64,000 bases of DNA from Minisyncoccota bacterium (GTDB taxonomy: Bacteria > Patescibacteriota > Minisyncoccia > Phycocordibacterales > Phycocordibacteraceae): positions 2,157 to 66,156 of the forward strand of contig JBAZRE010000003.1 of assembly GCA_041663025.1 (NCBI GenBank). Reading direction: 5' to 3'. The position numbers and the translations under genes are program-made. This document shows, piece after piece, positions 12,209-61,014 of this stretch. The notes beneath the pieces are model-generated. The model saw only the letters and a list, made by a program, of their open reading frames with translations, was not told the DNA's origin and did not search any database. Within the stretch, counting starts at the first letter, position 1. Every line of letters starts with the position of its first letter.

Positions 12209-13187
12209 TCATACGTATGAGAGTATCATTTCGGTTGAAAATATTCTCGGCGCGTGGCGAGAATTTATAAAAGGGAAGAGGAAACGTACTGACGTACAAG
12301 AATTTGAAAGATATTTGATGCATAACGTTTTAGAACTGCACCAAGAACTCGTGGCAGGCACCTATCAACATGGCGGCTATCACCATTTCAAGATCAGCGA
12401 CCCCAAGCCGCGCGACATTCATAAAGCGAGTGTGCGTGACCGACTGGTACACCACGCTCTTTATCGTCAACTCTATCCATTTTTTGACAAAACGTTCATC
12501 AGCGATTCGTATTCATGCCGAAGAGAGAAGGGGACACATAAGGCGATGAACCGCTTCAGAGCCTTTGCGCGCAAGGTTTCTAAAAATAATACGCGCACCT
12601 GTTGGGTGTTGAAGTGCGATATCAGAAAATTCTTCGCATCTATCGATCAAGCCAAACTCATACAGATTCTTAAACAGCGAATATCAGACGAACGCATTGT
12701 CCAGCTTGTTGAGAAAGTCATCACGAGTTTCTCAAGTACTGAAAAAGGGAAGGGTCTACCACTCGGGAACCTCACCTCACAACTCCTCGTAAACATCTAT
12801 ATGAACAAGTTTGATCAGTTTGTTAAACATGAGCTAAAAGCAAAGCATTATATTCGCTACGCTGATGACTTTGTATTTTTATCATCCGACCGTTCATTTC
12901 TTACCTCACTTTTGCCCCTTATTCATAATTTTCTACATGACCATCTCGCTCTTGAGTTACATCCAGGTAAGGTCTCTATCAACACGCTTGCATCCGGCAT
13001 TGATTTCCTCGGCTGGGTGCATTTTCCAGACCATCGCGTTTTACGCACCTCTACCAAAAAGCGGATGTTCCGGCGTATTATAGAAACGAAAAGTAGGAAA
13101 GAAACAGTGCAGTCATATCTCGGCCTCTTGAGTCATGGCAACACACATAAACTGCAATCAGTTGCATTTTCTGACTACAACCTATAA
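12150..13187 (+). CDS. DGR reverse transcriptase (copy 1). Track ORF starts at TTG 12315, but the conserved RT N-terminus is in frame from 12150 with no ATG/GTG/TTG
   Basis: LPLGNLTSQLLVNIY is the DGR-specific [IVL]GxxxSQ motif (replacing QGxxxSP). RYADDFVF is the YxDD active site. Upstream in-frame codons encode ...KKFTHTYESIISVENILGAWREFIKGKRKRTDVQEFERYL, the conserved N-terminal extension of DGR RTs. Confidence 0.85.
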   Translation, partial: ARSITGKSFWGGVTSRKKFTHTYESIISVENILGAWREFIKGKRKRTDVQEFERYLMHNVLELHQELVAGTYQHGGYHHFKISDPKPRDIHKASVRDRLVHHALYRQLYPFFDKTFISDSYSCRREKGTHKAMNRFRAFARKVSKNNTRTCWVLKCDIRKFFASIDQAKLIQILKQRISDERIVQLVEKVITSFSSTEKGKGLPLGNLTSQLLVNIYMNKFDQFVKHELKAKHYIRYADDFVFLSSDRSFLTSLLPLIHNFLHDHLALELHPGKVSINTLASGIDFLGWVHFPDHRVLRTSTKKRMFRRIIETKSRKETVQSYLGLLSHGNTHKLQSVAFSDYNL

Positions 13188-21536: not shown

Positions 21537-21608
21537 GCCCTGATAGTTCAATGGATAGAACACCGGACTTCTAAGCCGGTTATGTAGGTCCGATTCCTAC
21601 TCGGGGCA
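21537..21608 (+). tRNA. tRNA-Arg (anticodon TCT)
   Basis: GCCCTGATAGTTCAATGGATAGAACACCGGACTTCTAAGCCGGTTATGTAGGTCCGATTCCTACTCGGGGCA. D-stem GTTC/GAAC. Anticodon loop CTTCTAA. T-arm GTAGG/CCTAC. Confidence 0.8.
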
Positions 21609-21609
21609 C

Positions 21610-21691
21610 GGGCACGTGGCGGAACTGGTATACGCGTACGTCTCAGAAGCGTATGGGGCAACCCTTGAGAGTTCAAATCTCTCCGCGCCCA
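21610..21691 (+). tRNA. tRNA-Leu (anticodon CAG), class II with long variable arm
   Basis: GGGCACGTGGCGGAACTGGTATACGCGTACGTCTCAGAAGCGTATGGGGCAACCCTTGAGAGTTCAAATCTCTCCGCGCCCA. Anticodon stem TACGT/GCGTA with loop CTCAGAA. Variable arm GGG/CCC. One A-C mismatch in the acceptor. Confidence 0.7.
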
Positions 21692-21692
21692 C

Positions 21693-21765
21693 GGGCGATT
21701 AGCTCAGCTGGTAGAGCAACGAGTTTACACCTCGAAGGTCACAGGTTCGAGTCCTGTATCGCCCA
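21693..21765 (+). tRNA. tRNA-Val (anticodon TAC)
   Basis: GGGCGATTAGCTCAGCTGGTAGAGCAACGAGTTTACACCTCGAAGGTCACAGGTTCGAGTCCTGTATCGCCCA. Anticodon loop TTTACAC. Confidence 0.8.
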
Positions 21766-21771
21766 CAAAAT

Positions 21772-23055: not shown

Positions 23056-23766
23056 ATGGGGTTGCGTGGACCAAAGCCTAGGAGAAGGGAAGTAATCTGG
23101 TCGCCAGAATTGGCGTACGCGATCGGGCTTATTGCGACTGACGGTTGTCTCTCAAATGATGGTAGACATTTATTATTCGTTTCTAAAGATCTTGAGCAGA
23201 TTAAAAATCTTAAGAAAGCGCTCGGACTTAAAGTAAAAATTGGTATCCATCGAGCAGGTGCTAGAATGAAAAACCGGCTTTATCACAGAGTGCAGTGGGG
23301 CGATGTCGTTTTCTATAACTTTTTACTTGAAATAGGACTTACACAGAACAAGTCTAAAACAATTGGAGTACTCGCTATACCAGACAAATACTTTTTCGAC
23401 TTCTTGCGTGGCAGCTTCGATGGCGATGGCTCCTTTTACAGTTATTTTGACCCACGTTGGAAATCGAGCTTTATGTATTACGTCAGTATAACTTCTGCAA
23501 GTTCATTGCACATCGATTGGTTGAGAGAAACACTTCATCGTCTACTTAGTGTAGACGGGCACATATCAAAAATGGGAGAAAATAGAGAAGATCGGAATCC
23601 AATATTTAATCTAAGGTTTGCAAAAAGAGAATCACTGCTAGTTATGAACGCCATGTACTCCACTTCTTGCTTGATACACCTATCTCGCAAAAGATTGAAA
23701 ATAGCGCGCGCTTTGCGTATAGTAGGGGAGTCATTGCTTTCGCGTAGAAAGAAATTGACGAAGTAA
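23056..23766 (+). CDS. Double-motif LAGLIDADG homing endonuclease; stop codon 1 nt before tRNA-Leu
   Basis: 236 aa with two canonical motifs LAYAIGLIATDGCLS and FLRGSFDGDGSF separated by about 95 aa. Confidence 0.8.
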   Translation: MGLRGPKPRRREVIWSPELAYAIGLIATDGCLSNDGRHLLFVSKDLEQIKNLKKALGLKVKIGIHRAGARMKNRLYHRVQWGDVVFYNFLLEIGLTQNKSKTIGVLAIPDKYFFDFLRGSFDGDGSFYSYFDPRWKSSFMYYVSITSASSLHIDWLRETLHRLLSVDGHISKMGENREDRNPIFNLRFAKRESLLVMNAMYSTSCLIHLSRKRLKIARALRIVGESLLSRRKKLTK

Positions 23767-23767
23767 T

Positions 23768-23851
23768 GCCCAGGTGGCGCAATTGGTACCCGCGCAGCCT
23801 TGAGGTGGCTGTGGTCGCAAGACCGTGGAGGTTCAAGTCCTCTCCTGGGCA
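23768..23851 (+). tRNA. tRNA-Leu (anticodon GAG), class II
   Basis: GCCCAGGTGGCGCAATTGGTACCCGCGCAGCCTTGAGGTGGCTGTGGTCGCAAGACCGTGGAGGTTCAAGTCCTCTCCTGGGCA. Anticodon stem CAGCC/GGCTG with loop TTGAGGT. Variable arm GGTC/GACC. Confidence 0.8.
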
Positions 23852-23962
23852 CTAAAACTAAATCGTGTTGCAGAACTTGTGTTCCTGCGGCTGGTCTGGT
23901 ATGACAGACAAAAGAAAAGAAAGATGGAAAAGGTCTTTGTACTTCAACAAAGGAGGTGACGA

Positions 23963-31448: not shown

Positions 31449-31907
31449 TCACTTCTCAAATCCAACAAGTGCTTTGATCGGTTTTGAATGTGCTGTTCGC
31501 GGGCCGCCAACAACGAGATGTGCGTGCAGATGGATCACTGATGCTCCGGTTATACCCATAATGCCAGATCGAATAAAGAATGTTCCGCCTTGAATAACAT
31601 ATTCTTCCACAAATTTTCGATGAAGGTCCTTGAGATCAAGCCATTCTGTAGCAGACATTTCTTCTATTCTTTCAATATGTCGCCGTGCTATGAATAGAAT
31701 GTGAAATTCTGTTCCTTCGTATGGCCACGAATTTCTTGTGACGAGCCAGTGCTTGGATTTATACAACAATGGCCTGCGGTGATGATAATCAAGGTTTTCC
31801 TCGCAAAAAGGACAGAACCCTTTTGCGATAATCATCTCGAGAGTTTGAACATAATCATCGCGTGACACAACTTGTGCATTTCCTACATCAACTTGTTTTT
31901 TCTCCAC
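31449..31907 (-). CDS. HIT (histidine triad) family hydrolase
   Basis: 152 aa. HxHxHxx motif VIHLHAHLVVG near the C-terminus. Confidence 0.75.
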   Translation of the reverse strand: MEKKQVDVGNAQVVSRDDYVQTLEMIIAKGFCPFCEENLDYHHRRPLLYKSKHWLVTRNSWPYEGTEFHILFIARRHIERIEEMSATEWLDLKDLHRKFVEEYVIQGGTFFIRSGIMGITGASVIHLHAHLVVGGPRTAHSKPIKALVGFEK

Positions 31908-32938: not shown

Positions 32939-34597
32939 ATGGAAGAGCGAATCAAAAAAGCAGTTGGCGAGGCACTCATGAAGATGGGTGCTGGCGAGGT
33001 CGCGTTTGTGGTCGAACGGCCTGCAGACATGCGGCACGGCGACTACACGACCAATGCCGCGATGGCGGCAGCAAAGAAGCTGGGGAAGAACTCGCGCGAG
33101 CTTGCTGATGAGCTTGCGCGAGTATTGATCGATGAACTGGACAAAGACACCGCGAGCTATGTTGCCGTTGCGGGGCCAGGATTTGTGAACATCACTCTCG
33201 CACCAGAAGCGATTGCACTTGCTGTTGCCGAGGCGGATGCAAAAAAAGAAGAGTGGGGTATGGGTAGCGTGAATAGTGAGCAAAGAGTGCTGATTGAATA
33301 CACTGACCCGAATCCGTTTAAAGAGATGCACATCGGGCACTTGATGAGCAATGTAATTGGCGAGTCGCTCGCGCGACTTATCGAGAATGAGAATGCAACA
33401 GTCATTCGTGCCAATTATCAAGGCGACGTCGGGCCGCACGTCGCTAAGGCGCTTTGGGGCTTGCAGAGGGCGGGCACGAGCGAGCCGGTAACCGCAAAAG
33501 AAATCGGCACCGCCTATGCCGCAGGATCGCTCGCATATGAAGACTCGCCTGAAGCAAAAGCAGAAGTTGATGCATTAAATCAAGAAATCTATGCAGGTAA
33601 GAATCATGAGCTGATGGAGCTCTGGCGCAAGGGTCGTGACGTGTCGCTCGAGGCGTTTGAACAACTCTACAAAATATTAGGGACGCATTTTGATTACTAT
33701 TTCTACGAGAGTGAAACAGCGGATCCAGGATTGCGTATCGTGCATGATGGTATCAAACAGGGAGTTTTTGAAGAAAGCGAGGGCGCGATTATTTATCGCG
33801 GCGAAAAGAAAGGATTGCACACGCTTGTTTTCATCACAAGCAAAGGCACACCAACGTATGAGGCAAAGGATATTGGTCTCGCTTTTTTGAAAGAGGAACG
33901 GGTGCAGAGCGACCGTTCGATTATCGTGACCGCATCAGAACAGATTGGGCATTTTAAGGTATTTCTTGCGGCGCTTAATGAAATCGCGCATCTCATTGCA
34001 AAGAAAACAGTGCATGTGCCGCATGGATTCTTGCGGCTCACAACAGGGAAGATGTCTTCGCGCGAAGGTAATGTCATCACGGCGGAATCGCTCATAAAAG
34101 ACATTATCAAGAAGGCAAGCGAGAAGAATGCGGATCCGCTTATCGCCGAGCAGGTCGCGCTCGGCGCGATTAAATACATGATTCTGCGACAAGCGCCGGG
34201 CTCGGACATCATTTTTGATCCGGAGAAGTCACTCTCGCTTGAGGGTGACTCTGGGCCGTATCTGCAGTATGCACTAGTCCGAGCACGTTCCGTGCTCGAG
34301 AAAGCACGAAGCACGAAGCACGAAGCACGAAACGAAAAACCAGAAATGCCGTACCGATTAGAGCGCCTGGTCGTGCATTTCCCTGAAGTTACTGCGCGTG
34401 CAGCGAGCGAGCTCGCGCCAAACTTGCTGGTGAACTATCTCACCGAGCTCGCGGGAGAGTGGAACTCATTTTATGCACAAGAAAAAATCATTGGCGGCGA
34501 GAATGAAGCACATAAACTTATGATTGCGCGTGCATTCATCAACACAATGACCAGAGGTCTAGCTCTCCTGGGTATCCCCACACCAGAGAGGATGTAA
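32939..34597 (+). CDS. argS: Arginyl-tRNA synthetase
   Basis: Internal ATG (MEERIKKAVGEAL) of track ORF 32684..34597. HIGH-region variant PNPFKEMHIGHLMS, a KMSSRE-like degenerate KMSKS, and a DALR anticodon-binding domain. Confidence 0.85.
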   Translation: MEERIKKAVGEALMKMGAGEVAFVVERPADMRHGDYTTNAAMAAAKKLGKNSRELADELARVLIDELDKDTASYVAVAGPGFVNITLAPEAIALAVAEADAKKEEWGMGSVNSEQRVLIEYTDPNPFKEMHIGHLMSNVIGESLARLIENENATVIRANYQGDVGPHVAKALWGLQRAGTSEPVTAKEIGTAYAAGSLAYEDSPEAKAEVDALNQEIYAGKNHELMELWRKGRDVSLEAFEQLYKILGTHFDYYFYESETADPGLRIVHDGIKQGVFEESEGAIIYRGEKKGLHTLVFITSKGTPTYEAKDIGLAFLKEERVQSDRSIIVTASEQIGHFKVFLAALNEIAHLIAKKTVHVPHGFLRLTTGKMSSREGNVITAESLIKDIIKKASEKNADPLIAEQVALGAIKYMILRQAPGSDIIFDPEKSLSLEGDSGPYLQYALVRARSVLEKARSTKHEARNEKPEMPYRLERLVVHFPEVTARAASELAPNLLVNYLTELAGEWNSFYAQEKIIGGENEAHKLMIARAFINTMTRGLALLGIPTPERM

Positions 34598-35113: not shown

Positions 35114-38100
35114 ATGGCTGACACCACCTTGAAGTCAGAGGTCGCGAAGCGCGAAGAGGCGATTCTCGCCTTTTGGGAGCGCGAGCACATCTTCGAGAAG
35201 TCACTCGCCAAGGACGCCCCCAAAGGCGATTTCATATTTTATGAAGGGCCACCGACTGCCAATGGCAAACCAGGCATTCACCACCTCGAGGCGCGCGCTT
35301 TCAAAGACGCGATTCCGCGCTACAAGACAATGCGTGGGTATCGTGTAAATCGCCGTGCTGGTTGGGACACGCACGGTCTCCCTGTTGAGTTGCAAGTCGA
35401 AAAAGAGCTTGGCTTCTCGGGGAAGCCGGACATAGAGAAATACGGCATCGCCGCATTCAACAAAAAATGTCGAGAGAGTGTTTTCACATATATCGATCTT
35501 TGGGCAAAATTTACCAAACGTATTGGCTATTGGGTCGATGAGACAAAAGCATATTTCACCTTCGATAGCGCGTATATGGAGGTGCTCTGGTACCTCTTCG
35601 CGCAGACGGCGAAGGACGGCCGGCTCTATAAAGACTACAAGGTGGTGCCTTGGTGTCCGCGCTGCGGCACAGCACTCTCTTCGCACGAGCTCGCGCAGGG
35701 CTATGAAGATGTAAAAGATCTCACCATCACGGCGAAGTTTGAATTAGTTAATGAACCGGGGACTTTTCTTCTTGCATGGACGACAACACCATGGACACTT
35801 CCTGGTAACGTTGCTCTCGCGATCGGTGGAAATATTGCATATGGTAAGTACGAGAGAGACGGAGTACTCGTTATTCTTGCAGACACACGGGCAGCAGAGG
35901 TGCTTGGGGAAGAATGGAGACGTGTCGAAGGAGTTTCGGCATCGTTACTGGTCGGCAAAACATATAAGCCGCTTTACGATTTTGCAAAAAATCTTGCAGC
36001 AGAAAGTGAAAAGCCAAAATTTCAAAAGGCATTTCAAGTATATGCGGCAGACTTCGTCACCACTGAAGAGGGTACAGGCATCGTGCATACCGCGGTGATG
36101 TATGGACAAGAAGATTTTGAATTAGGAAATAAAATTGGTTTGCCGAAGGTTCACCTCGTGAATCCAGAAGGAAAGTTTATTGAAGGGACAGAGCTTCTCT
36201 CTGGGGTGTCGGTTGTGGAAGAAGAAACATCAGTTGAGATACTCAAAGACCTACAGGCACGCGGTCTTCTTTTCAAAAAAGAGCCATACACGCACTCATA
36301 TCCATTTTGTTGGCGCTGCAAGACGCGACTCATCTATTATGCGCGCGATTCGTGGTATATCCGTATGGATGATTTACGCGAGAAGCTTGTTGCGGAGAAT
36401 AAGAAAATTAATTGGGAACCAAAATATATCCGCGATGGGCGCATGGGTGAGTGGCTTGCGAATGCTAAAGATTGGGCGATAAGCCGTGAGCGCTATTGGG
36501 GTACACCGCTCCCGATCTGGCGCAGCGCTGACGGGAGTGAACAGGTAGTCGTTGATTCGATTGACATGCTGAAGAAGCACATCAAAAAATCTGGTAACAC
36601 CTATTTCGTCATGCGTCATGGCGAATGCGAAAGTAATGTTCAGAAGATTTTTGATGTGAATAGCCGGACAACTAATGGTCTGACTGAAAAAGGGAAGAGT
36701 GAGGCGGAAGCGAGCGGAAAAGATATTGTGGCGAAGGGTATCACCAAGATATATGCGTCACCACTCTTGCGAACGCGCGAAACGGCAGAGATCGTTGCTG
36801 AAAAAGTCGGTATCTCGAAAGACGACATTGTGTACGACGAGCGACTGCACGAGCTTAACGTTGGAGCGTTTGACGGCACGGCTGCGATAGAAGATTTCTG
36901 CGAATTTAGACGCGTGCACGGCATCACAGAACCAATCGAAGGAGGGGAGAGTTATCTTGATGCCATACGGCGTTTCGGCTCATTCCTATATGAAATTGAA
37001 GAGACCCTTCATGATGAACGAGTGCTGATTGTTTCGCATGGCGTCTCGTGGAAAGCATTCATTGCGATCGTCGAGGGTCTCGGACAAAAGGAGGCATGGG
37101 AGGGTGTCCTCTCGAAAGAAACCAAACTGAAAAAAGCAGAATTTCGCGAAATACCTTTCATCTCGTTACCCCATAATGAGAACTATGAACTCGATCTCCA
37201 TCGACCATACATTGACGATGTCGTACTTGTTTCTGAGAATGGCACGGAATTACGGAGAACGTCTGAAGTGATGGACGTGTGGTTTGACTCGGGTGCGATG
37301 CCATTTGCGCAGGCGGCCAAAGAGTGTGAGTGTGAATCAGTTGAAGCTTTCCTAAAGAAGATAGAATATCCAGCAGACTTTATTTGTGAAGCGATCGATC
37401 AAACGCGCGGTTGGTTTTATACGCTTCTTGCGGTCGGAACACTTGCAGGGCGTGGTGCTGCTTTTAAGAACGTCATCTCACTCGGACACCTACTTGATGC
37501 TGAAGGTCAGAAGATGAGTAAGTCAAAAGGGAACGTGGTTGATCCGTGGGTTGAAATTGATAGATGGGGTGTCGATGCAGTGCGCTTCTGGATGTACAGC
37601 GTGACACAGGCGGGCGACACAAAAAATTATGATGAGAAGACAATGCGCGAAGCCGCGAGAGTTCTTTCTTGGATAGAGAACAGCGCAAAGTTTTATGAAT
37701 TATTTAAAGATACTCCTAAGAACAAAACTGAATCGACCGTGATTGATCGTTGGATGCAAGCACGAGTAGATCAGGCGGTCTCAATTGTCACGAACTCTAT
37801 GGATGTCTACCGACCATACGACGCAACACGCGCAATTGCTAATCTCGCTGAGGATCTTTCACAGTGGTATGTGCGCCGCATTCGCGATCGTGTGCGCGAG
37901 GGTGATAGTGCCGCGCTCGCAACACTACGCGACACGCTTCAAGTTTCAGTACTACTTCTCGCACCATTCGCACCATTTATTGCCGAGGATATATATAAGA
38001 AAATGAAGAGCGATAGTGACCCAGAGAGCGTGCATCTCGCTGATTGGCCAAAGATAAAAAAACACTGGAATCTTTTCAGCAGTCCAGAAAAGCTCATTTC

Positions 38101-38479
38101 AGACATGCAAAAAGTACGTGCACTCGCCTCAGAGGCACTCATGCTACGACAAAAAGCTGGGATTAAAGTGCGCCAGCCGCTTGCGAGCCTGACTATCCCA
38201 GACACTCTGACAGATGAACTTTCCGCGATTCTAGCAGAAGAAGTAAATGTGAAAAAAATAATTGTCGGCAAAGAGCTCGCGCTCGACACAAACCTCACAC
38301 CAGAACTTATCAAAGAGGGCGATGAACGCGAGATGGCTCGCGCAGTCGCTGAAGCGCGTAAGACAGAAGGGTTTTCTCAAAAAGATAATGTGCACGAAGA
38401 AGCCAATGCAGAAGGGAAATACACCGTTCTCTTATCAACTGGCGAAGTGCGATTCAACCTGATTCGCAATGCATCATAA
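35114..38479 (+). CDS. ileS: Isoleucyl-tRNA synthetase carrying an in-frame ~190 aa histidine-phosphatase (PGAM-like) domain insertion
   Basis: 1121 aa. HIGH ([14 protein letters not shown]), editing CP1 (TTPWTLPGN), [20 protein letters not shown] (QKMSKSKGN) and the anticodon-binding domain are all present. An extra domain lies between ...PIW and DLHRPYIDD. Confidence 0.9.
36611..37192 (+). other. Embedded histidine phosphatase superfamily domain within ileS
   Basis: [11 protein letters not shown] (RHG catalytic His motif), [12 protein letters not shown] (phosphate-binding Arg), IVSHGVSW (second catalytic His): the three hallmark motifs in the correct order and spacing. Confidence 0.75.
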
Positions 38480-39038
38480 ATACGAAACACGCGGTATTGT
38501 GCTCTCACGCACACCTATGGGAGAAGCGAATGCGCTGGTCACCGTGCTCACGCCAGAAGTAGGGCTTGTGCGGGCTCGTGCACAAGGGGTGCGTCGGATG
38601 GGTGCCAAGCTTGCGGCTGCTCTCGCAACGTTTGCTGAGAGCGAATTGGTGCTGGTGCGCGGGAAGGAGAGCTGGCGTATCGCAGGTGCGGTGCTTTATG
38701 AAAATTGGTTTTCGCGAATGAACTGCACTTCAGCACGATTGAGGGCAGCACGTGTTTCTGGTCTCCTCTTGCGACTCGTAGCTGGCGAATCAAATGATGA
38801 AAAACTTTTTTCTATTCTTACTGGATTTTTTGCCGCTCTCGCGACTTTTCCTGAAGAGCTTCATGAGGCTGCCGAAACGCTCGCAGTGCTCCGCATTCTC
38901 TCTATACTCGGGCTCGACACCGGAAGTATTCCCGGAGACGAGATCCTCTTTGCACAATCAACACTTGCTGCCGTTAAGAACGATCGTGTGAAGTACCTGA
39001 CGCGCATTAATCACGGTATTGAAGCCTCAGGTCTTTGA
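38469..39038 (+). CDS. recO: DNA repair protein RecO (short form)
   Basis: 189 aa. N-terminal OB fold [39 protein letters not shown] typical of RecO. Confidence 0.7.
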
Positions 39039-40929
39039 TATACTACATTCCATGCCAACGTTCCCCGAAGATGATACCGGTTCGCTTGAGAAGGCACGAG
39101 CGCGTTTGTATACACCTGGCACACAACAACAAAGTTCGCGCATGCCGCTTTCTGTATCTAAGGAGCGCACACTCCAGCACATGTGGAAAGGAACGTCAGG
39201 AAACACGCCATATTTTGGCAAGCGACATATGCGGCTCGCAAGTGTCTTCTTCACCGCCGCATTTCTTTTCTTCATCGTATCGCTTGGTGTCGCAGGGTAC
39301 CTTCTCTATTACGGCGGTAATGCGGTATCGATCGACAAAGTATCAGTTGATATCCAGGGCCCAACCACGATTGCTGGAGGCGATACAGTTCCACTCTCCC
39401 TTATCATCACAAATAAGAATGCCGTTGCAGTCGAAAACGCTACTATTGAAATTGATTTTCCTGATGGGACACGGAGCGCAGCTGACGTGCAGAACACCTA
39501 TCCTCGCTACATAGAGAATCTTGGAACACTCGCGAGTGGGGCAACGGTGACTCGTTCGGTGAAAGTCATCTTATTCGGTGGCGCTGGAGAGGCATTGACA
39601 CTGCCGGTCTCTCTATCTTATGGAACGGCCGCTTCAAATGCGGTGTTTGTGAAAAAGACCTCGTATGCACTCGCAGTTTCCTCGACACCACTCTCGGTCT
39701 CCGTTGATGCGCCGACCGAGATTGTCGCTGGCAAACCATTCACGCTCACGCTCACTGCTCGCAGCAACGCGACCGTACCGTTGAATAATGTAGTACTCGC
39801 TGGAGCGTTCCCATTCGGTTTTTCAGTTACTTCATCTTCAGTTCCTCTCACTGACTCGAGCTTTTTGCTCGGAACACTTTCACCAAACACCAGCAAGATC
39901 GTTACATTGACGGGAGTGCTTATCGGTCAAGACAATGAGCAGCGAGTCTTTCATTTCACCATTGGAACAGCGAAGACCGCGGATGATTCTGAACTTGCCG
40001 TGACCTATCTGACTCAGGATGCGACAGTGACAGTTGCTTCTCCATTCATCAACACGACATTAGCGGTCAATGGTGACACCTCAGATACTGTTGTTGTAGG
40101 TCCCGGGAGTCGTCAGAGTGTGTCGGTCTCTTATACAAACACGCTTCCAATAAGCGTTATGAATGCAACAGTAGCTATCGCCATCTCCGGATCAGCGATT
40201 GACTACAGCAGTATTCAGACATCACGCGGTTTTTACCGTTCGAGTGACCACACGATTGTTTTCAGTCGGGATACCGACCCATCTCTCGCTACTCTCGCGC
40301 CAGGTGCTTCAGGTATCGGCGTGTTCACATTCTCGACACTCGCGTCTAGCATGCTCTCTGCATCACCGATGATAACGTTCACTGTTTCAGCATCTGGCAC
40401 ACAATCGGGGCAAACGAGTGCCACCGAGGACATGAGTGCCTCGACGATTAAAACGGTGAAAGTTGCGACATCTGTAGCTCTCACATCCTCATCTCTCCAT
40501 AACACGGGGTCTTTGAACAACATCGGTCCCATCCCACCGCGTGCTGATCAGGCGACGACCTACACTATCGTTTGGAATGTAAAGAATTCGGGGAGCTCTG
40601 TTGCAGGCGGCACAGTTTCAGCCACCCTTCCTAGCTATGTCTCCTATACCGGCGTGGCAACTGGAGGATTTTCTTATAACGAGAGCTCCCATTCTATGAC
40701 GTGGAGCACAGGCGATCTAGCACAGGGCACAACTGCGCAAGGGGCATTCCAAGTCTCTCTCACCCCATCTACTTCACAGAAGGGGATGGCGCCTATGATT
40801 GCAAGCGCAGCATCATTCTCGGGGTATGATCGTTTTGCTGGCGTGAAAGTCTCTGCGAGAGCGGATGCGGTGACGACAGAAACGAAGGAAGATCTTGGGT
40901 ATACCGGTGCGAACGCAATTGTGCAGTGA
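39019..40929 (+). CDS. Membrane-anchored surface protein with repeated beta-rich domains (DUF11/CARDB-like)
   Basis: 636 aa. One TM helix (LASVFFTAAFLFFIVSLGVAGYLLYY) then Ser/Thr/Val-rich repeated about 100 aa modules. Start codon uncertain. Confidence 0.5.
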   Translation: MKPQVFDILHSMPTFPEDDTGSLEKARARLYTPGTQQQSSRMPLSVSKERTLQHMWKGTSGNTPYFGKRHMRLASVFFTAAFLFFIVSLGVAGYLLYYGGNAVSIDKVSVDIQGPTTIAGGDTVPLSLIITNKNAVAVENATIEIDFPDGTRSAADVQNTYPRYIENLGTLASGATVTRSVKVILFGGAGEALTLPVSLSYGTAASNAVFVKKTSYALAVSSTPLSVSVDAPTEIVAGKPFTLTLTARSNATVPLNNVVLAGAFPFGFSVTSSSVPLTDSSFLLGTLSPNTSKIVTLTGVLIGQDNEQRVFHFTIGTAKTADDSELAVTYLTQDATVTVASPFINTTLAVNGDTSDTVVVGPGSRQSVSVSYTNTLPISVMNATVAIAISGSAIDYSSIQTSRGFYRSSDHTIVFSRDTDPSLATLAPGASGIGVFTFSTLASSMLSASPMITFTVSASGTQSGQTSATEDMSASTIKTVKVATSVALTSSSLHNTGSLNNIGPIPPRADQATTYTIVWNVKNSGSSVAGGTVSATLPSYVSYTGVATGGFSYNESSHSMTWSTGDLAQGTTAQGAFQVSLTPSTSQKGMAPMIASAASFSGYDRFAGVKVSARADAVTTETKEDLGYTGANAIVQ

Positions 40930-44089: not shown

Positions 44090-45126
44090 GAGCTTCTGGG
44101 GGGGGGGTTACTTCTAGGAAGAAATTCACTCATTCATCCGAGCATATCATTTCAGTTGAAAATTTACTCGGAGCGTGGCAAGAATTTATAAGGGGCAAAC
44201 GCAAACGTGATGACGTACAAGAATTCGAACGGTATTTGATGCACAATGTTTTAGAATTGCATCGCGAGCTTGCTGCTGGCACCTATAAACACGGCGGCTA
44301 CCATCACTTTAAGATCAGCGACCCGAAACCACGCGATATTCATAAAGCGAGCGTGCGAGATCGGCTCATTCATCACGCTCTCTATCGCCAACTTTATCCA
44401 TTCTTTGACCGTACATTCATACTAGACTCGTATTCGTGCCGCCTCAACAGAGGCACTCATCGGGCGATGAACCGCTTTCGAGCTTTCGCATATCAAGTAT
44501 CTAAAAACGACACGTGCACTTGCTGGGTTCTCAAATGCGATATACGAAAGTTCTTCGCTTCCATCGATCAAGAAATATTGATGGAGATTATTAGTACCTA
44601 TATATCAGATAAACGCATCTGTGTACTTATCCAAAATATCATCACCAGCTTCAACTCTTGTGCAACAAGGAAGGGTTTGCCACTCGGGAACCTTACCTCG
44701 CAACTGCTTGTGAATATCTATATGGGTGAATTTGACCAGTTTGTTAAACATAAACTAAAAGTGAAGTATTATATCCGCTACGCAGACGACTTTGTGATTC
44801 TTTCTGCTAACAAAAATTATTTGTTGCGAGTACTACCATATATGGAAGCATTTTTGCATGACCAACTAAAGCTCAGTCTGCATCCAGACAAAGTATTCAT
44901 AAGAACCCTTGCCTCAGGGATTGATTTTCTTGGTTGGATGCATCGCCCCAATTATCGCGTATTACGGACGGCAACCAAAAATAGGATGTTCCGCACGATC
45001 AAAAAGAGCGAAGGGAAGCCTGAAGTGCTGCACTCTTATCTTGGCATGTTGAGTCATGGAAACACACAGAGACTTCAAGAGAAAGCAATTTCTTTCGCAA
45101 ATATGCTAGGATGCCCGTATGGATAA
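44071..45126 (+). CDS. DGR reverse transcriptase (copy 2). Track ORF starts at TTG 44236; conserved N-terminal coding is in frame from 44071 without a canonical start
   Basis: LPLGNLTSQLLVNIY ([IVL]GxxxSQ) and RYADDFVIL. About 75% aa identity to RT1. Upstream in-frame ...KKFTHSSEHIISVENLLGAWQEFIRGKRKRDDVQEFERYL. Confidence 0.85.
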   Translation, partial: FSPKQARASGGGVTSRKKFTHSSEHIISVENLLGAWQEFIRGKRKRDDVQEFERYLMHNVLELHRELAAGTYKHGGYHHFKISDPKPRDIHKASVRDRLIHHALYRQLYPFFDRTFILDSYSCRLNRGTHRAMNRFRAFAYQVSKNDTCTCWVLKCDIRKFFASIDQEILMEIISTYISDKRICVLIQNIITSFNSCATRKGLPLGNLTSQLLVNIYMGEFDQFVKHKLKVKYYIRYADDFVILSANKNYLLRVLPYMEAFLHDQLKLSLHPDKVFIRTLASGIDFLGWMHRPNYRVLRTATKNRMFRTIKKSEGKPEVLHSYLGMLSHGNTQRLQEKAISFANMLGCPYG

Positions 45127-57543: not shown

Positions 57544-60500
57544 ATGCAAACAGTAACTATGAAAGCGACCGCGAAGATTGCAGCAGTAGCGACTGGACTC
57601 GCGATGGCGACGTCAATGCTCTCACTTGCGCCTATAGCGCACGCGGCAGCTCTGACAAGCTCGCAAATCTCGTCGATTCTCTCGTTGCTCTCTTCATTCG
57701 GTGCAGGTGCTGACACGATCGCAAATGTCAATGCGGCCCTCAACGGCCAGGCGACGAGCGGTACGACCACCACCACGACAGGAACTTCAGCTTGCTCGTT
57801 CTCGCGCGATCTCACGATTGGCGCGACAGGTGCTGACGTAAAGTGCCTCCAACAGGCACTTATCGCAGGAGGCTTCTCGATCCCTGCTGGCGCAACGAGC
57901 TACTTCGGTACTCAGACGCGCGCAGCTGTTGCTTCTTGGCAGTCGTCTAAGAATGTTGCTCCCGCAGTTGGATACTTCGGTCCCATCTCGCGCGCAGCGT
58001 TCAATCTCGGCGGCGGCGGTTCAACAACCACGACAACCACGACAACCACGACACAGACAGCAGGTACGGGCAATGGCCTGAAGGTCACGCTCGCATCTGA
58101 CTCACCGAACGGCATCGCACTTGTTCAGACACAAGCGATTGGCGAACTCGCAAAGTTCACCTTCGCGAATCCAACCAGTGCTGATGTAAAGGTGACGAAT
58201 GTTGCCTTCAAGCGTATTGGTGTGTCATCTGACTCAACACTGTCAGCGGTATACCTCTACAACGGTGCAAGTCGTCTCACTGACGCTGCGAGCATCACTT
58301 CTGGTGCTTTCAACTTCAACGATTCAGCTGGTCTCTTCACGGTGCCGGCAGGCCAGACTTATACAGTCTCGGTCCGCTCCAACATCTTGACAGGCACAAA
58401 CGGTCAACAGATCGGCGTCCAGCTTGTATCGGTCACTTCGTCCGGTACGCTTGACTCTTCTGTAGTCTTCCCAATTACGGGCGGCATCCAGACCATCTCG
58501 TCCGCATCCATGGGTACGGTAGTAGTCACCTACACTGGCCCTACGAGTGCAACGGAGGATCCTGGCAATGATGTCCGCGTCTTTGAAGGTTCAACAGTAG
58601 TCTCAACTCATGCCGCTGACCTTAGTTCAATCACCTTTGAAAATCGCGGCACTTCTAGTGATGGCGACCTCAAGAACTTCCGTCTCTATGTAGACGGTGT
58701 TGTTGTTGGCTCAACGGTAAGCCAGTCAGTCAATGATAAGGTAACCTTCGATCTTACTGCTAGCCCTGTTCGCCTAGCGACGGGTACGCGTATCATCAAG
58801 GTGCTTGCTGATATCGTCGGCGGTTCAAGCTATACCTATGACATCCAGATTCGCCGTGCAGTAGATGCGCGCTTTGTGGATGCTGAACTAGGTCAGCCGA
58901 TTCTTGCCACTGGTACTATGGCAGCTGCAGCCGCGAATACTATCGCTGGAGGCACGCTCTCTATCACTAAGGCAACGAATTCTCCGAGCGATAACGTCGG
59001 ACTCTCTTCTACCAACGTCAAGTGGGCGACCTATGAGGTTCGTGCCGCTGGCGAGGATGTGAAGGTTGAGGCGGCTACTATTGCGGCATATTATGCTGCT
59101 GGGGTTACAGCTACAACGACGGATAACGCGAAAGTATTCTTGAATGGTGTGCAGATCGGTTCAACTGCCGACATTGCTGCCGCAGGAACTGAATTCACAT
59201 TCGGTTCATCATTCATCGCTCGCCACGGTGTGGTTGAGATCTTGGATATCTACGGTGATGCAAAGACATCTGGAGCAGTAGATTATCCTGCAGCATCTGA
59301 CATTACCGTTGGTATCGCGGTTGCTTCTGCAGACACTGAAGGTATGAGCTCTGGTGACGCAGTAACTGCCATCACAGAAAAGGATGGCAATGCTCGCACA
59401 ATCTCGGCTTCTACCCTAACGGCGTCTAAGTACTCCGGCTACGGTGATCAAACAATGATTGCAGGCACGAATAATGCCAAGCTCGGTTCGTTCACTCTCT
59501 CTGCGGGTTCAACCGAGGGTGTGAATGTCAACACCATCGCTATCAACCTTTCTGCTGTAGAAGCGGCTAGCGTCACGGACCTTCGGCTCGTAGACTCGGT
59601 CACTGGTGCACAGATTGGTTCAACGAAGGTTACTCCATCAGGTAGTGCTACTGGAGCAGGAGACAACTCCTACTCGGTCAACGTCGCAATACCGGCAAAC
59701 GGCACTAAGACGATTGACCTTGTTGGTAACATCAAATCTGCCGCGGAACTTGGTCCGTGGACAGCTCAACTTGATGACACGACAGGTGGCACAGGCGCGG
59801 TAACTGCACAGTCAGTTACAGTCTCTGCTACCACTCTTCAGACGATTACTCTTTCTACAGCTGTTCTCACGGCTGCAGTAGGTGTATCGCCTGATAACGC
59901 AAACGTGATTGCAGGTTCTGTCATGGTGAAAGTCGGCTCGTTCGACTTCACTTCGCAGTACTCTGCGTTCACAGTAGACAAGATTGCAGTGAAGATTCCG
60001 AATAACTCAGCAACATCTGTTGCTTCGGTTACCTTGAGGTATCCGAATGCAAGCGGTGTCTCTACGGACACGAGTGCGACTCTCGCATCTCCTCTGTCTA
60101 CAGAGGCATACGCGACAGCTTCCTTCACTGGTCTCACGTTCTACATTCCGCAGAACACGACCAAGAAAGTTGATGTCTATGTCAACTTGGCTTCTATCCA
60201 AGCTGACGGTGATTCAGGTAAGTCGGTTACTGTCCTTCTCAGTGACTTTGGAGGCTTCCGCAAGACGGACTCCGCAGGCACGGCCAACACAACCCTTACA
60301 GGTTCTGGAGACCTTGCCTCGGCTTCAACTGGCAAGGGCACGATGTATGTGAGGAAGTCAATTCCGACCCTCTCTGCAGTCGCTCTTGATAGCTCAACTC
60401 TCACTGCTGGCACGAACAAGGCATTTGCCCGTGTGAAGGTCACAGCAGATGCGGCTGGAGATATTAGTTGGGATAAGATTGCTTTCGTGGTCAACAAGAC

Positions 60501-61014
60501 CTACGGAATAACGATCGGTGCTACAACAACTCTTAAGTTGTGGCAGGGTTCCAACTCTATCGCTGGCTTCTTCGCAACGACAACTGCTGGAGGTACAATT
60601 ACTGCTGCTGCAGCTATTGAGGCCTTCCCGGCTGTTGACACAGCAGTTGCTAAGACCGACTTGAATCTCGTCTTCCTCCCAGATGCGGAGCAGACGGTTT
60701 CGGCTGGCACAAGCGTTACCTACGAGCTCCGTGGTACCATTGGTGGTATAGCGGCGAACTCGAACGTTCTCGATGTTTCGATTGCGAATAAGCAGACGAC
60801 AGCTAGCACAACTGCTTCGGCCTTGGCGGTCGGTGGTGGTGGTACTGCAGGTCATGAAAACACCGGCGGTACAAGTGCAACTCCGTCCTTCACTTGGTCT
60901 GACAGGTCTATTGTTAGCGCGCCTCACACAACGAGCACCGCTGACTGGACAGATGATTACCTCGTGAAGGCTCTGCCGCTCACAATCGGCAACCTATCGG
61001 TGATAGGTAGCTAA
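57544..61014 (+). CDS. Large secreted cell-surface protein with N-proximal peptidoglycan-binding domain flanked by poly-Thr linkers
   Basis: 1156 aa. Signal peptide (MKATAKIAAVATGLAMATSMLSLAPIAHA). PG_binding_1-like CSFSRDLTIGATGADVKCLQQALIAGGF...FGTQTRAAVASWQ. TTTTTTTTTTQ linkers. About 900 aa of Thr/Ser/Ala/Val-rich beta-repeat region. Confidence 0.65.
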   Translation: MQTVTMKATAKIAAVATGLAMATSMLSLAPIAHAAALTSSQISSILSLLSSFGAGADTIANVNAALNGQATSGTTTTTTGTSACSFSRDLTIGATGADVKCLQQALIAGGFSIPAGATSYFGTQTRAAVASWQSSKNVAPAVGYFGPISRAAFNLGGGGSTTTTTTTTTTQTAGTGNGLKVTLASDSPNGIALVQTQAIGELAKFTFANPTSADVKVTNVAFKRIGVSSDSTLSAVYLYNGASRLTDAASITSGAFNFNDSAGLFTVPAGQTYTVSVRSNILTGTNGQQIGVQLVSVTSSGTLDSSVVFPITGGIQTISSASMGTVVVTYTGPTSATEDPGNDVRVFEGSTVVSTHAADLSSITFENRGTSSDGDLKNFRLYVDGVVVGSTVSQSVNDKVTFDLTASPVRLATGTRIIKVLADIVGGSSYTYDIQIRRAVDARFVDAELGQPILATGTMAAAAANTIAGGTLSITKATNSPSDNVGLSSTNVKWATYEVRAAGEDVKVEAATIAAYYAAGVTATTTDNAKVFLNGVQIGSTADIAAAGTEFTFGSSFIARHGVVEILDIYGDAKTSGAVDYPAASDITVGIAVASADTEGMSSGDAVTAITEKDGNARTISASTLTASKYSGYGDQTMIAGTNNAKLGSFTLSAGSTEGVNVNTIAINLSAVEAASVTDLRLVDSVTGAQIGSTKVTPSGSATGAGDNSYSVNVAIPANGTKTIDLVGNIKSAAELGPWTAQLDDTTGGTGAVTAQSVTVSATTLQTITLSTAVLTAAVGVSPDNANVIAGSVMVKVGSFDFTSQYSAFTVDKIAVKIPNNSATSVASVTLRYPNASGVSTDTSATLASPLSTEAYATASFTGLTFYIPQNTTKKVDVYVNLASIQADGDSGKSVTVLLSDFGGFRKTDSAGTANTTLTGSGDLASASTGKGTMYVRKSIPTLSAVALDSSTLTAGTNKAFARVKVTADAAGDISWDKIAFVVNKTYGITIGATTTLKLWQGSNSIAGFFATTTAGGTITAAAAIEAFPAVDTAVAKTDLNLVFLPDAEQTVSAGTSVTYELRGTIGGIAANSNVLDVSIANKQTTASTTASALAVGGGGTAGHENTGGTSATPSFTWSDRSIVSAPHTTSTADWTDDYLVKALPLTIGNLSVIGS

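Follow-up and report, generated by a model that had tools for sequence, protein, structure and literature searches.

A Histidine-Phosphatase Domain Nested inside Isoleucyl-tRNA Synthetase in Patescibacteria

Introduction

Why would an isoleucyl-tRNA synthetase (IleRS) gene carry, in frame, what looks like a whole second enzyme? This question is raised by a stretch of 64,000 nucleotides from a Minisyncoccota bacterium (GenBank assembly GCA_041663025.1, contig JBAZRE010000003.1, positions 2,157 to 66,156 of the forward strand), designated here as the window, whose ileS gene at 35114–38479 (+) contains a histidine-phosphatase domain. Few enzymes are as conserved or as well studied as the aminoacyl-tRNA synthetases, and new catalytic domains in their catalytic core are rare and have usually proved meaningful, the editing domains being the prime example. 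The original prediction, made from the sequence without database searches, claimed a complete histidine-phosphatase domain in frame inside an otherwise intact IleRS. The claim is borne out by profile matches for both parts (TIGR00392 and PF00300), and the distribution, origin and possible role of the domain are analyzed below.

Results

The IleRS gene and its inserted domain

The open reading frame (ORF) at 35114–38479 (+) encodes 1121 amino acids (aa) and is uninterrupted by stops or frameshifts. The full protein scores 800 bits against the NCBI curated equivalog TIGR00392 (ileS), above the cutoff of 621.4, and the match is split in two pieces flanking the insert, aa 7–497 and the C-terminal half. 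Pfam recognizes tRNA-synt_1, Anticodon_1 (aa 878–1023) and His_Phos_1 in this single ORF. The N-terminal IleRS part (aa 1–494; 35114–36595 (+)) comprises the first half of the catalytic fold and the CP1 editing domain, together with the first arm of the connective hairpin, and the C-terminal part (aa 686–1121; 37169–38476 (+)) consists of the second arm of the hairpin, the second half of the catalytic fold and the anticodon-binding domains. CP1 and the anticodon-binding domain are in canonical order, the editing-domain motifs WTTTPWTLP and GTGIVH are found, and the KMSKS motif (aa 800–804; 37511–37525 (+)) is invariant in an alignment of 63 sequences. Judged by its sequence, the ORF is an IleRS of type 2.

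The HIGH, CP1, KMSKS and anticodon domains had all been listed as present in the flanks, and all are, HIGH in a variant form. The class I signature reads G-I-H-H (aa 54–57; 35273–35284 (+)), which is a GXHH variant. GIHH is seen in 93 of 121 close homologs and HYGH in more distant relatives. HYGH or HFGH stands at this position in distant insert-bearing IleRS and in the insert-free IleRS of contig L004. The GXHH variant of IleRS2 was reported to be functional and is linked to mupirocin hyper-resistance (Brkic et al., PMC10485003).

The inserted module occupies aa 495–685 (36596–37168 (+)). His_Phos_1 (PF00300) was matched at aa 498–677 with E = 1.1e-31 and 110.5 bits against a gathering threshold of 21.7, covering profile positions 2–181 of 194. 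The segment 36590–37192 searched alone against Pfam also matched His_Phos_1 (E = 4e-33). The three phosphatase motifs quoted in the original prediction are present: the RHG motif at 36614–36622 (+), made up of Arg501, His502 (the predicted nucleophile) and Gly503, which aligns to the RHG of PhoE (1EBB); the SPxxR motif with Arg553 (36770–36772 (+)), predicted to bind phosphate; and VSHGVSW, whose SHG motif includes His642 (37037–37039 (+)), the predicted second catalytic histidine. Glu580 (36851–36853 (+)) is the predicted proton donor and aligns to the catalytic Glu in the PhoE segment DERLREIHLG.

The boundaries of the insert were set by alignment with insert-free IleRS and with stand-alone homologs. 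The closest solved structure of an IleRS is that of Priestia megaterium IleRS2 (8C8U/8C8V/8C8W, E = 1e-209), and the window IleRS aligns to 8c8w_A over residues 5–478 and then from 483 onward (483–852). The roughly 190 extra residues stand in place of a 4-residue turn (residues 479–482) of this protein, at the tip of the connective hairpin of the catalytic domain, which is a surface hairpin. Insert-free IleRS fragments from Patescibacteria (P0037, P0049 and P0057) have just a few residues at the insertion site, and the predicted number of about 190 extra residues agrees with both references. No alignment of the insert to an IleRS zinc-binding or connective peptide was obtained, and its identity as a phosphatase stands.

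The insert starts about 2 residues ahead of the first strand (N-T-Y-F-V-M-R-H-G) and ends directly after the last strand (A-E-F-R-E-I-P-F), and the phosphatase is joined to the IleRS through two very short linkers. The stand-alone homologs start with M...N-x-Y-x-x-x-R-H-G and finish with ...G-E-L-R-K-L. Because the ends of the insert match the termini of the stand-alone proteins, the insert equals one entire stand-alone phosphatase of about 190 aa.

Features of a removable or misassembled element were looked for at the same junctions. No Hint/intein Pfam family was found in the protein at E ≤ 0.01. The N-terminal junction reads ...SGN-TYF, the junction residues not being Cys, Ser or Thr, and the HN at the C-terminal junction precedes Glu within an LP(H/K/T)NE motif, which insert-free IleRS share. 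These results agree with the earlier statement that intein splice junctions are lacking. Rfam reports only tRNAs within the window, with no group I or group II intron. Base composition and GC content do not change between the insert and its flanks, and no direct or inverted repeats beyond chance flank the insert.

Fold and family of the phosphatase

The AlphaFold model of the phosphatase domain alone is of high confidence (pLDDT 95.9, pTM 0.92) and shows the alpha/beta fold typical of phosphoglycerate mutases. Foldseek placed PspA (4IJ5/6), Rv2419c, PhoE (1H2E/1EBB), TIGAR, the riboflavin-pathway phosphatase HFP and CobC among its neighbors, with probability 1.00 and query-normalized TM scores of 0.73–0.84 to the nearest solved structures; Rv2419c is glucosyl-3-phosphoglycerate phosphatase (GpgP). 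The best sequence matches in the PDB are PhoE and PspA (E about 3e-11, roughly 25–31% identity), and the RHG, Asn, Arg, Glu and second His of the insert all align with their counterparts in these two enzymes.

The domain had been labeled as SixA-like and as related to the cofactor-dependent phosphoglycerate mutases (dPGM). These labels are not supported, as every curated model falls well short of its cutoff and small phosphatases of the PhoE/PspA type are the closest relatives. For dPGM, NF038349 gave 85 bits against a cutoff of 225 and TIGR01258 gave 36.8 against 81.7, and the PRK models of dPGM are all far below; the insert, of about 188 aa, is also shorter than the aligned dPGM chains (roughly 230–250 aa). 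The SixA model TIGR00249 gave 31.3 bits against 74.5, with a match limited to the N-terminal 70 or so residues. The model of CobC, an alpha-ribazole phosphatase (TIGR03162), gave 75.3 bits against 162.9, and that of the phosphoserine phosphatase PspA (NF045917) gave 64.5 bits for the insert alone against 350. Because the models of dPGM, SixA, CobC and PspA all score so far below their cutoffs, the insert appears to belong to none of the characterized families, and is thus classified by profile comparison as a member of the branch-1 histidine phosphatase superfamily outside them.

Conservation and distribution

The 120 best full-length homologs (66–77% identical, 1086–1152 aa) were collected from NCBI, JGI, ENA and Logan, and PF00133 and PF00300 occur together in all 120. 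Their mean identity to the window protein is 0.43 for the insert, and 0.82 (N-terminal) and 0.72 for the IleRS parts; from this strong conservation of the IleRS body, the protein is presumed to perform isoleucine-specific aminoacylation of tRNA-Ile. About 35 further, more distant fragments (33–48% identical) have the phosphatase domain at the same site, and distant insert-bearing backbones occur both with and without zinc-knuckle cysteines.

GTDB was scanned with a 12-sequence alignment of the domain, one genome per species. At least 523 related stretches were confirmed and the best 80 were inspected, a sample that leaves out the lower-scoring stand-alone forms. All 80 loci are from Patescibacteria (Kaiserbacteria, Nomurabacteria, Taylorbacteria, Paceibacterota, Minisyncoccia, and metagenome-assembled genomes labeled Saccharibacteria), and in all of them the domain is nested at the identical site of ileS, with the IleRS parts 39–87% identical to the window. 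Complete stop-to-stop ORFs of 1109–1347 aa are present at 66 of the loci, and at the remaining 14 the gene runs into the end of its contig. At most of the 80, argS is retained upstream and recO downstream. The domain is not a one-off. A multiple alignment with related genomes had been suggested as a check, and the homologs and loci compared here have the insert at the same site as a lineage-specific feature: in a large clade of these tiny, uncultured bacteria IleRS normally takes the nested form, which was already in public databases unremarked. The possibility of an assembly chimera with a separate phosphatase gene is ruled out by the same data, as the same in-frame architecture recurs in 120 protein clusters of independent origin and in the genomes of 80 species, each assembled independently, and the identical protein is present on several contigs.

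The phosphatase domain itself has drifted to 33–56% identity to that of the window across the 80 species, and its catalytic residues are nearly fixed. R553, H642, E612 and R620 are kept in 80 of 80 species. R501 and H502 are each kept in 79, the miss being an alignment gap, E580 in 79 with one Asp, and N508 in 77. R501, H502, R553, E580 and H642 are all kept in 121 of 121 close homologs. Such a tightly held catalytic core within a fast-drifting shell, as read from these alignments, indicates selection on catalysis. Strong constraint is limited to the catalytic core, and the alignments reveal no conserved interface with the IleRS.

A stand-alone phosphatase gene beside ileS

When the insert was searched exhaustively against 1.84 billion cluster representatives, many fused and stand-alone matches were found. 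The stand-alone homologs are of about 190 aa and 32–40% identical to the insert. The genes next to them could be read in six contexts; two additional contexts, on contigs too short to show neighbors, are outside this count. P0296 (L004:6001-6570) lies in the order argS, phosphatase, insert-free ileS (931 aa), recO, with gaps of 1–3 nt. P0306 (L094:5001-5588; GCA_003555075.1) lies in the order smpB, argS, phosphatase, ileS (935 aa), recO. P0336 (L009:538-1113) stands between the end of argS and the start of ileS. P0312 (L003:2107-2679) follows argS and precedes a convergent ileS. P0322 is overlapped by argS and followed by a truncated gene, and P0310 (L093:3430-4011) follows argS at a contig end. 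Thus, the phosphatase gene is directly after argS in six of the six contexts; ileS comes next in three and is convergent and adjacent in one, and the contig end or a truncation follows in two. The stand-alone gene is often separated from its neighbors by gaps or overlaps of 1–4 nt, and the block argS-phosphatase-ileS-recO is conserved.

The window shares the argS-ileS-recO synteny with these stand-alone lineages. Its argS is at 32939–34597 (+) upstream of ileS, and its recO, a member of the conserved block, at 38469–39038 (+) overlaps the end of ileS. At the nested loci, a single copy of the phosphatase was found within 6 kb on either side, and none between argS and ileS. Because the nested loci have no intervening copy, the nested and stand-alone states look complementary within one syntenic block. 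In a neighbor-joining tree of the domain copies, the nested and stand-alone forms are intermingled and the deep nodes are unsupported.

One protein, P0245 (213 aa), looks like a stand-alone form with its own Met and is 44% identical to the insert. Its C-terminus (FVFEPRAVNQDYERVE) resembles a degraded copy of the IleRS flank. By this resemblance, P0245 may be a remnant of the excision or decay of a nested form.

Other sites, multiple copies and other hosts

In other metagenomic lineages, the same phosphatase subfamily was found at other positions and in other hosts. In P0284 and P0291 (1419 and 1379 aa), the first copy lies between DCWFESG and DQTRGWFY and the second past KMSKS; P0385, a 1419-aa member of the P0284 cluster, is on a contig of 1.06 Mb (L002:10001-14260). 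P0298, P0311 and P0353 have two or three copies in or around the hairpin. P0309 (1538 aa, Val_tRNA-synt_C) is a valyl-tRNA synthetase (ValRS) with one copy past the editing domain and one at the loop equivalent to the hairpin, and it is an intact gene on a 48-kb contig (L092:703-5319). In P0242, four copies come after an N-terminal fragment that resembles ValRS. The RHG and the second His are kept in all copies of the multi-copy IleRS and ValRS. In an alignment of 37 nested and stand-alone copies, the catalytic R, H, R and H are invariant, and the Glu is present in at least 90%.

Among the 150 best representatives of the subfamily, every long one tested is a class I synthetase (IleRS or ValRS) except P0378 (L091:977-2140), in which TsaC/Sua5 of the t6A pathway is fused to the same phosphatase subfamily. 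This fusion is represented by 4 clusters. TsaC was found fused to at least six unrelated partners in Patescibacteria. The partners observed are an Ogt-like domain (PF01035, the most common), TruB, 2H/cyclic-phosphodiesterase domains, NUDIX, GNAT and DNA glycosylase. The TsaC fusion was considered as evidence for a link to tRNA and was down-weighted, being rare and involving a protein that fuses to many unrelated domains.

Discussion

The favored explanation and what weighs against it

The most parsimonious description of the protein is that it is bifunctional, a type-2 IleRS that carries a complete, independently folding histidine phosphatase in a surface loop. What the phosphatase does there is a separate question. 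The explanation favored here, given about an even chance of being correct, is that it is an autonomous phosphomonoesterase acting on a small phosphorylated metabolite or nucleotide, captured from the neighboring gene and kept for co-expression and co-localization with IleRS. The neighboring gene would have been relocated by about 1.5 kb into ileS, or a nested copy moved in the reverse direction, with the hairpin tolerating the insertion. As in the PhoE/PspA-type enzymes, His502 would attack a phosphomonoester and become phosphorylated, with the phosphate held by Arg501, Arg553, His642 and Asn508; Glu580 would protonate the leaving group, and water would then free the phosphate. The chain is predicted to enter where strand 1 begins, at its N-terminal end, on the sheet edge that lies across from the RHG pocket, and with such an entry the pocket should face solvent. 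The phosphatase would not contribute to the reactions by which isoleucine is activated and transferred.

Autonomy is favored because insertion sites and copy numbers differ among the proteins, the alignments show no conserved interface with IleRS, the nearest relatives act on small molecules, and genes fuse freely in this phylum. The nearest characterized relatives (PhoE, PspA, GpgP, CobC, TIGAR and HFP) are all small-molecule phosphatases. A precise geometric requirement is argued against because the domain occurs at varied loops, in one to four copies, in other lineages. As for a link to defense systems or phages, the PADLOC models of defense systems gave no match, and no close relatives were found in viral contigs, where only 5 weak generic ones were seen.

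Several observations weigh against an autonomous enzyme. Its fusion partners among the best representatives are restricted to IleRS and ValRS with TsaC as the sole exception, and all three hosts are ATP-dependent adenylate-forming enzymes of tRNA metabolism. The linkage to ileS, adjacent or nested, persists over very deep divergence. At least five or six insertion sites in two paralogous synthetases are hard to get by chance, unless local duplication or recombination between the paralogs is invoked, and two to four copies within one essential gene are odd for an ordinary metabolic enzyme. In addition, the AlphaFold model of the full-length protein, in which the synthetase core is poor (mean pLDDT 69.9, pTM 0.46), cannot orient the pocket, and the deep nodes of the tree, being unsupported, do not polarize the change between the nested and stand-alone states.

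Alternative explanations

The same restriction of hosts to IleRS, ValRS and TsaC, and the persistent genetic linkage to both argS and ileS, would be expected if the phosphatase were a dedicated partner of class Ia synthetases acting on a macromolecule, either freeing the 3' end of tRNA from a blocking phosphate or pyrophosphate, or dephosphorylating the synthetase itself, for example at the KMSKS serine. Several of the insertion sites in IleRS flank the KMSKS region in sequence, and arrays of copies could increase the efficiency of capture. Some background facts fit the proposal too: the superfamily includes the protein phosphatases SixA, PGAM5 and Sts-1, the HipA/HipT toxin kinases target the KMSKS-type motif in other class I synthetases, GltX and TrpS, by phosphorylation, and toxic alarmone synthetases pyrophosphorylate the CCA end of tRNA. 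Nevertheless, a dedicated partner is considered unlikely. The full-length model gives no structural support for a pocket that reaches the tRNA end or the KMSKS loop, and the variable sites, one of them beside the ValRS editing domain, share no obvious geometry. No HipA-like kinase or RelA/SpoT-like gene is present within the 64-kb window, and the lack of PADLOC matches points the same way. The closest relatives are small-molecule enzymes, and an activity that repaired tRNA ends should benefit every tRNA rather than those for Ile and Val alone. A particular form of the proposal is a built-in repair or antitoxin activity, in which the phosphatase restores chargeability by removing the phosphate or pyrophosphate that toxin kinases or pyrophosphokinases place on the KMSKS loop or the tRNA 3' end, whether as an operon partner, nested once, or in up to four copies in IleRS or ValRS. 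This form is regarded as distinctly improbable.

The hosts have another property in common. By established enzymology, IleRS, ValRS and TsaC all form an acyl-AMP and release pyrophosphate, and the phosphatase might clear a by-product of adenylation where it is formed, be it pyrophosphate, a nucleoside mono- or diphosphate, or a dinucleotide of the ApnA type, pulling activation forward or preventing build-up. The original prediction had pointed in this direction with aminoacyl-adenylates and Ap4A-type by-products, and had offered a regulatory phosphatase as another option; nothing in the present results specifically favors either suggestion. Clearing by-products needs no precise geometry, in keeping with the variation in sites and copy numbers, and the mycobacterial MutT1 with its histidine-phosphatase domain is among the weak NCBIfam matches of the insert. 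The histidine-phosphatase domain of MutT1 removes the terminal phosphate of nucleoside diphosphates, and cleavage of phosphoanhydrides is within the reach of the family. Histidine phosphatases normally attack terminal phosphates (monoesters), however, not the internal linkages of aminoacyl-adenylates or Ap4A, and these two compounds, lacking a terminal phosphate, are unlikely substrates. A separate HIT-family gene at 31449–31907 (-) is also present in the window, and the HIT family usually hydrolyzes aminoacyl-adenylates and ApnA. This gene adjoins thyA and lies two genes upstream of argS. No pyrophosphatase gene was found within the 64-kb window, which cannot show absence from the genome, and nothing indicates that these genomes are without an ordinary pyrophosphatase. 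Clearance of by-products also leaves unexplained why just IleRS and ValRS among about 20 synthetases would have the domain. There is thus only a small chance that this is its role.

It is very unlikely that catalysis has been lost and that the domain persists as a structural or tRNA-binding appendage or as tolerated bulk. Synthetases often acquire RNA-binding appendages, the residue following the second catalytic His varies (G, D, N or E), and a few distant copies have RHA or RHT, or a Tyr in place of His. Against this, 79 to 80 of the 80 species and every one of the 121 close homologs retain the five catalytic residues, with identity over the remainder of the domain falling to 33–56%, and the same residues are invariant or nearly so over the 37 nested and stand-alone copies.

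Finally, an assembly chimera, a frameshift, or an intein or intron lost before maturation is refuted for practical purposes by the recurrence of the architecture in independent genomes and by the junctions described above, even though a mis-join might seem conceivable given that the phosphatase is truly a separate gene beside ileS in some relatives.

Other features of the window

Two reverse-transcriptase genes (RVT_1) at 12315–13187 (+) and 44236–45126 (+) are paralogs encoding 290 and 296 aa with 71% identity. Both may be parts of diversity-generating retroelements, a common kind of element in this phylum. Three predicted tRNA genes, tRNA-Arg(tct), tRNA-Leu(cag) and tRNA-Val(tac), are arranged head to tail at 21537–21766 (+) with zero spacer bases. 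An ORF at 23056–23766 (+) has a weak match to the homing-endonuclease-like LAGLIDADG_3 (E = 3e-7) and ends one base before tRNA-Leu(gag) at 23768–23852. The genes at 39019–40929 (+) and 57544–61014 (+) encode nearly domain-free proteins of 636 and 1156 aa, in which a weak NPCBM_assoc match and a PG_binding_1 match are the sole domains recognized; these are presumably cell-surface proteins. The gene at 39019–40929 belongs to the conserved block, downstream of recO.

Novelty and significance

No published description of a phosphatase in IleRS was found among open-access papers and bioRxiv preprints. The word phosphatase is absent from a survey of 379 IleRS sequences and from one of about 96,000 GTDB sequences, the latter annotated with IleRS-specific domain models only. 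Many insert-bearing proteins are named by NCBI only as "class I tRNA ligase family protein", and this vague naming may be due to the roughly 190 extra residues. What appears to be new is a catalytic domain added to a synthetase that is nested, lineage-wide, and alternating with an operon partner, an architecture already visible in databases.

There is a practical consequence for annotation, in that the domain could be mistaken for a phosphoglycerate mutase when pathways of Patescibacteria are reconstructed automatically. If the phosphatase serves the synthetase or its tRNA, it would represent a new kind of translation quality control or defense. If it is autonomous, it would be a clean natural case of a neighboring gene captured into a loop of an essential enzyme.

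Comparison with known systems

The IleRS2 of P. megaterium has the same domain order as the window IleRS, and the GXHH variant of the window protein is that of the hyper-resistant IleRS2 forms (PMC10485003). The two differ at the hairpin, where P. megaterium IleRS2 has the 4-residue turn (479–482) and the window protein has the phosphatase of about 190 aa. The window IleRS is also without the four zinc-knuckle cysteines of the P. megaterium hairpin, whereas other insert-bearing homologs retain them.

The phosphatase itself is comparable to two free-standing enzymes, the broad-specificity phosphatase PhoE/YhfR of Geobacillus stearothermophilus (1EBB, 1H2E) and the metal-independent phosphoserine phosphatase PspA of Hydrogenobacter thermophilus (4IJ5). 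Both are of the same size as the window domain and have an aligned catalytic set, with TM scores of 0.73–0.78; unlike them, the window domain is nested in an IleRS.

Other fusions come close to this arrangement. In the mycobacterial RNase H/acid phosphatase (NF005567) and the MutT1 Nudix fusion (NF052459), a branch-1 histidine phosphatase is likewise joined to an enzyme of nucleic acids or nucleotides. These are terminal fusions, whereas the window domain is nested within another domain, and the insert is a member of neither family (73 bits against a cutoff of 326 for NF005567, and 20.8 against 475 for NF052459). NF040702 (isoleucine--tRNA ligase, N-acetyltransferase domain-containing) is an NCBI-curated precedent for an IleRS with an extra enzyme domain. 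There the added domain is GNAT instead of a phosphatase, and the window protein scores 300.9 against the cutoff of 1999.

The domain scheme of class Ia synthetases including CP1 has been described (bioRxiv 10.64898/2026.02.03.703510). Like the phosphatase, the CP1 editing domain of this enzyme is hydrolytic and sits within a loop of the catalytic fold. CP1 shows that nested insertion is an established route to new functions in this synthetase family; every IleRS, ValRS and LeuRS has it, and the geometry of the enzyme couples its active site to the 3' end of tRNA. Unlike CP1, the phosphatase is lineage-specific and variable in site and copy number.

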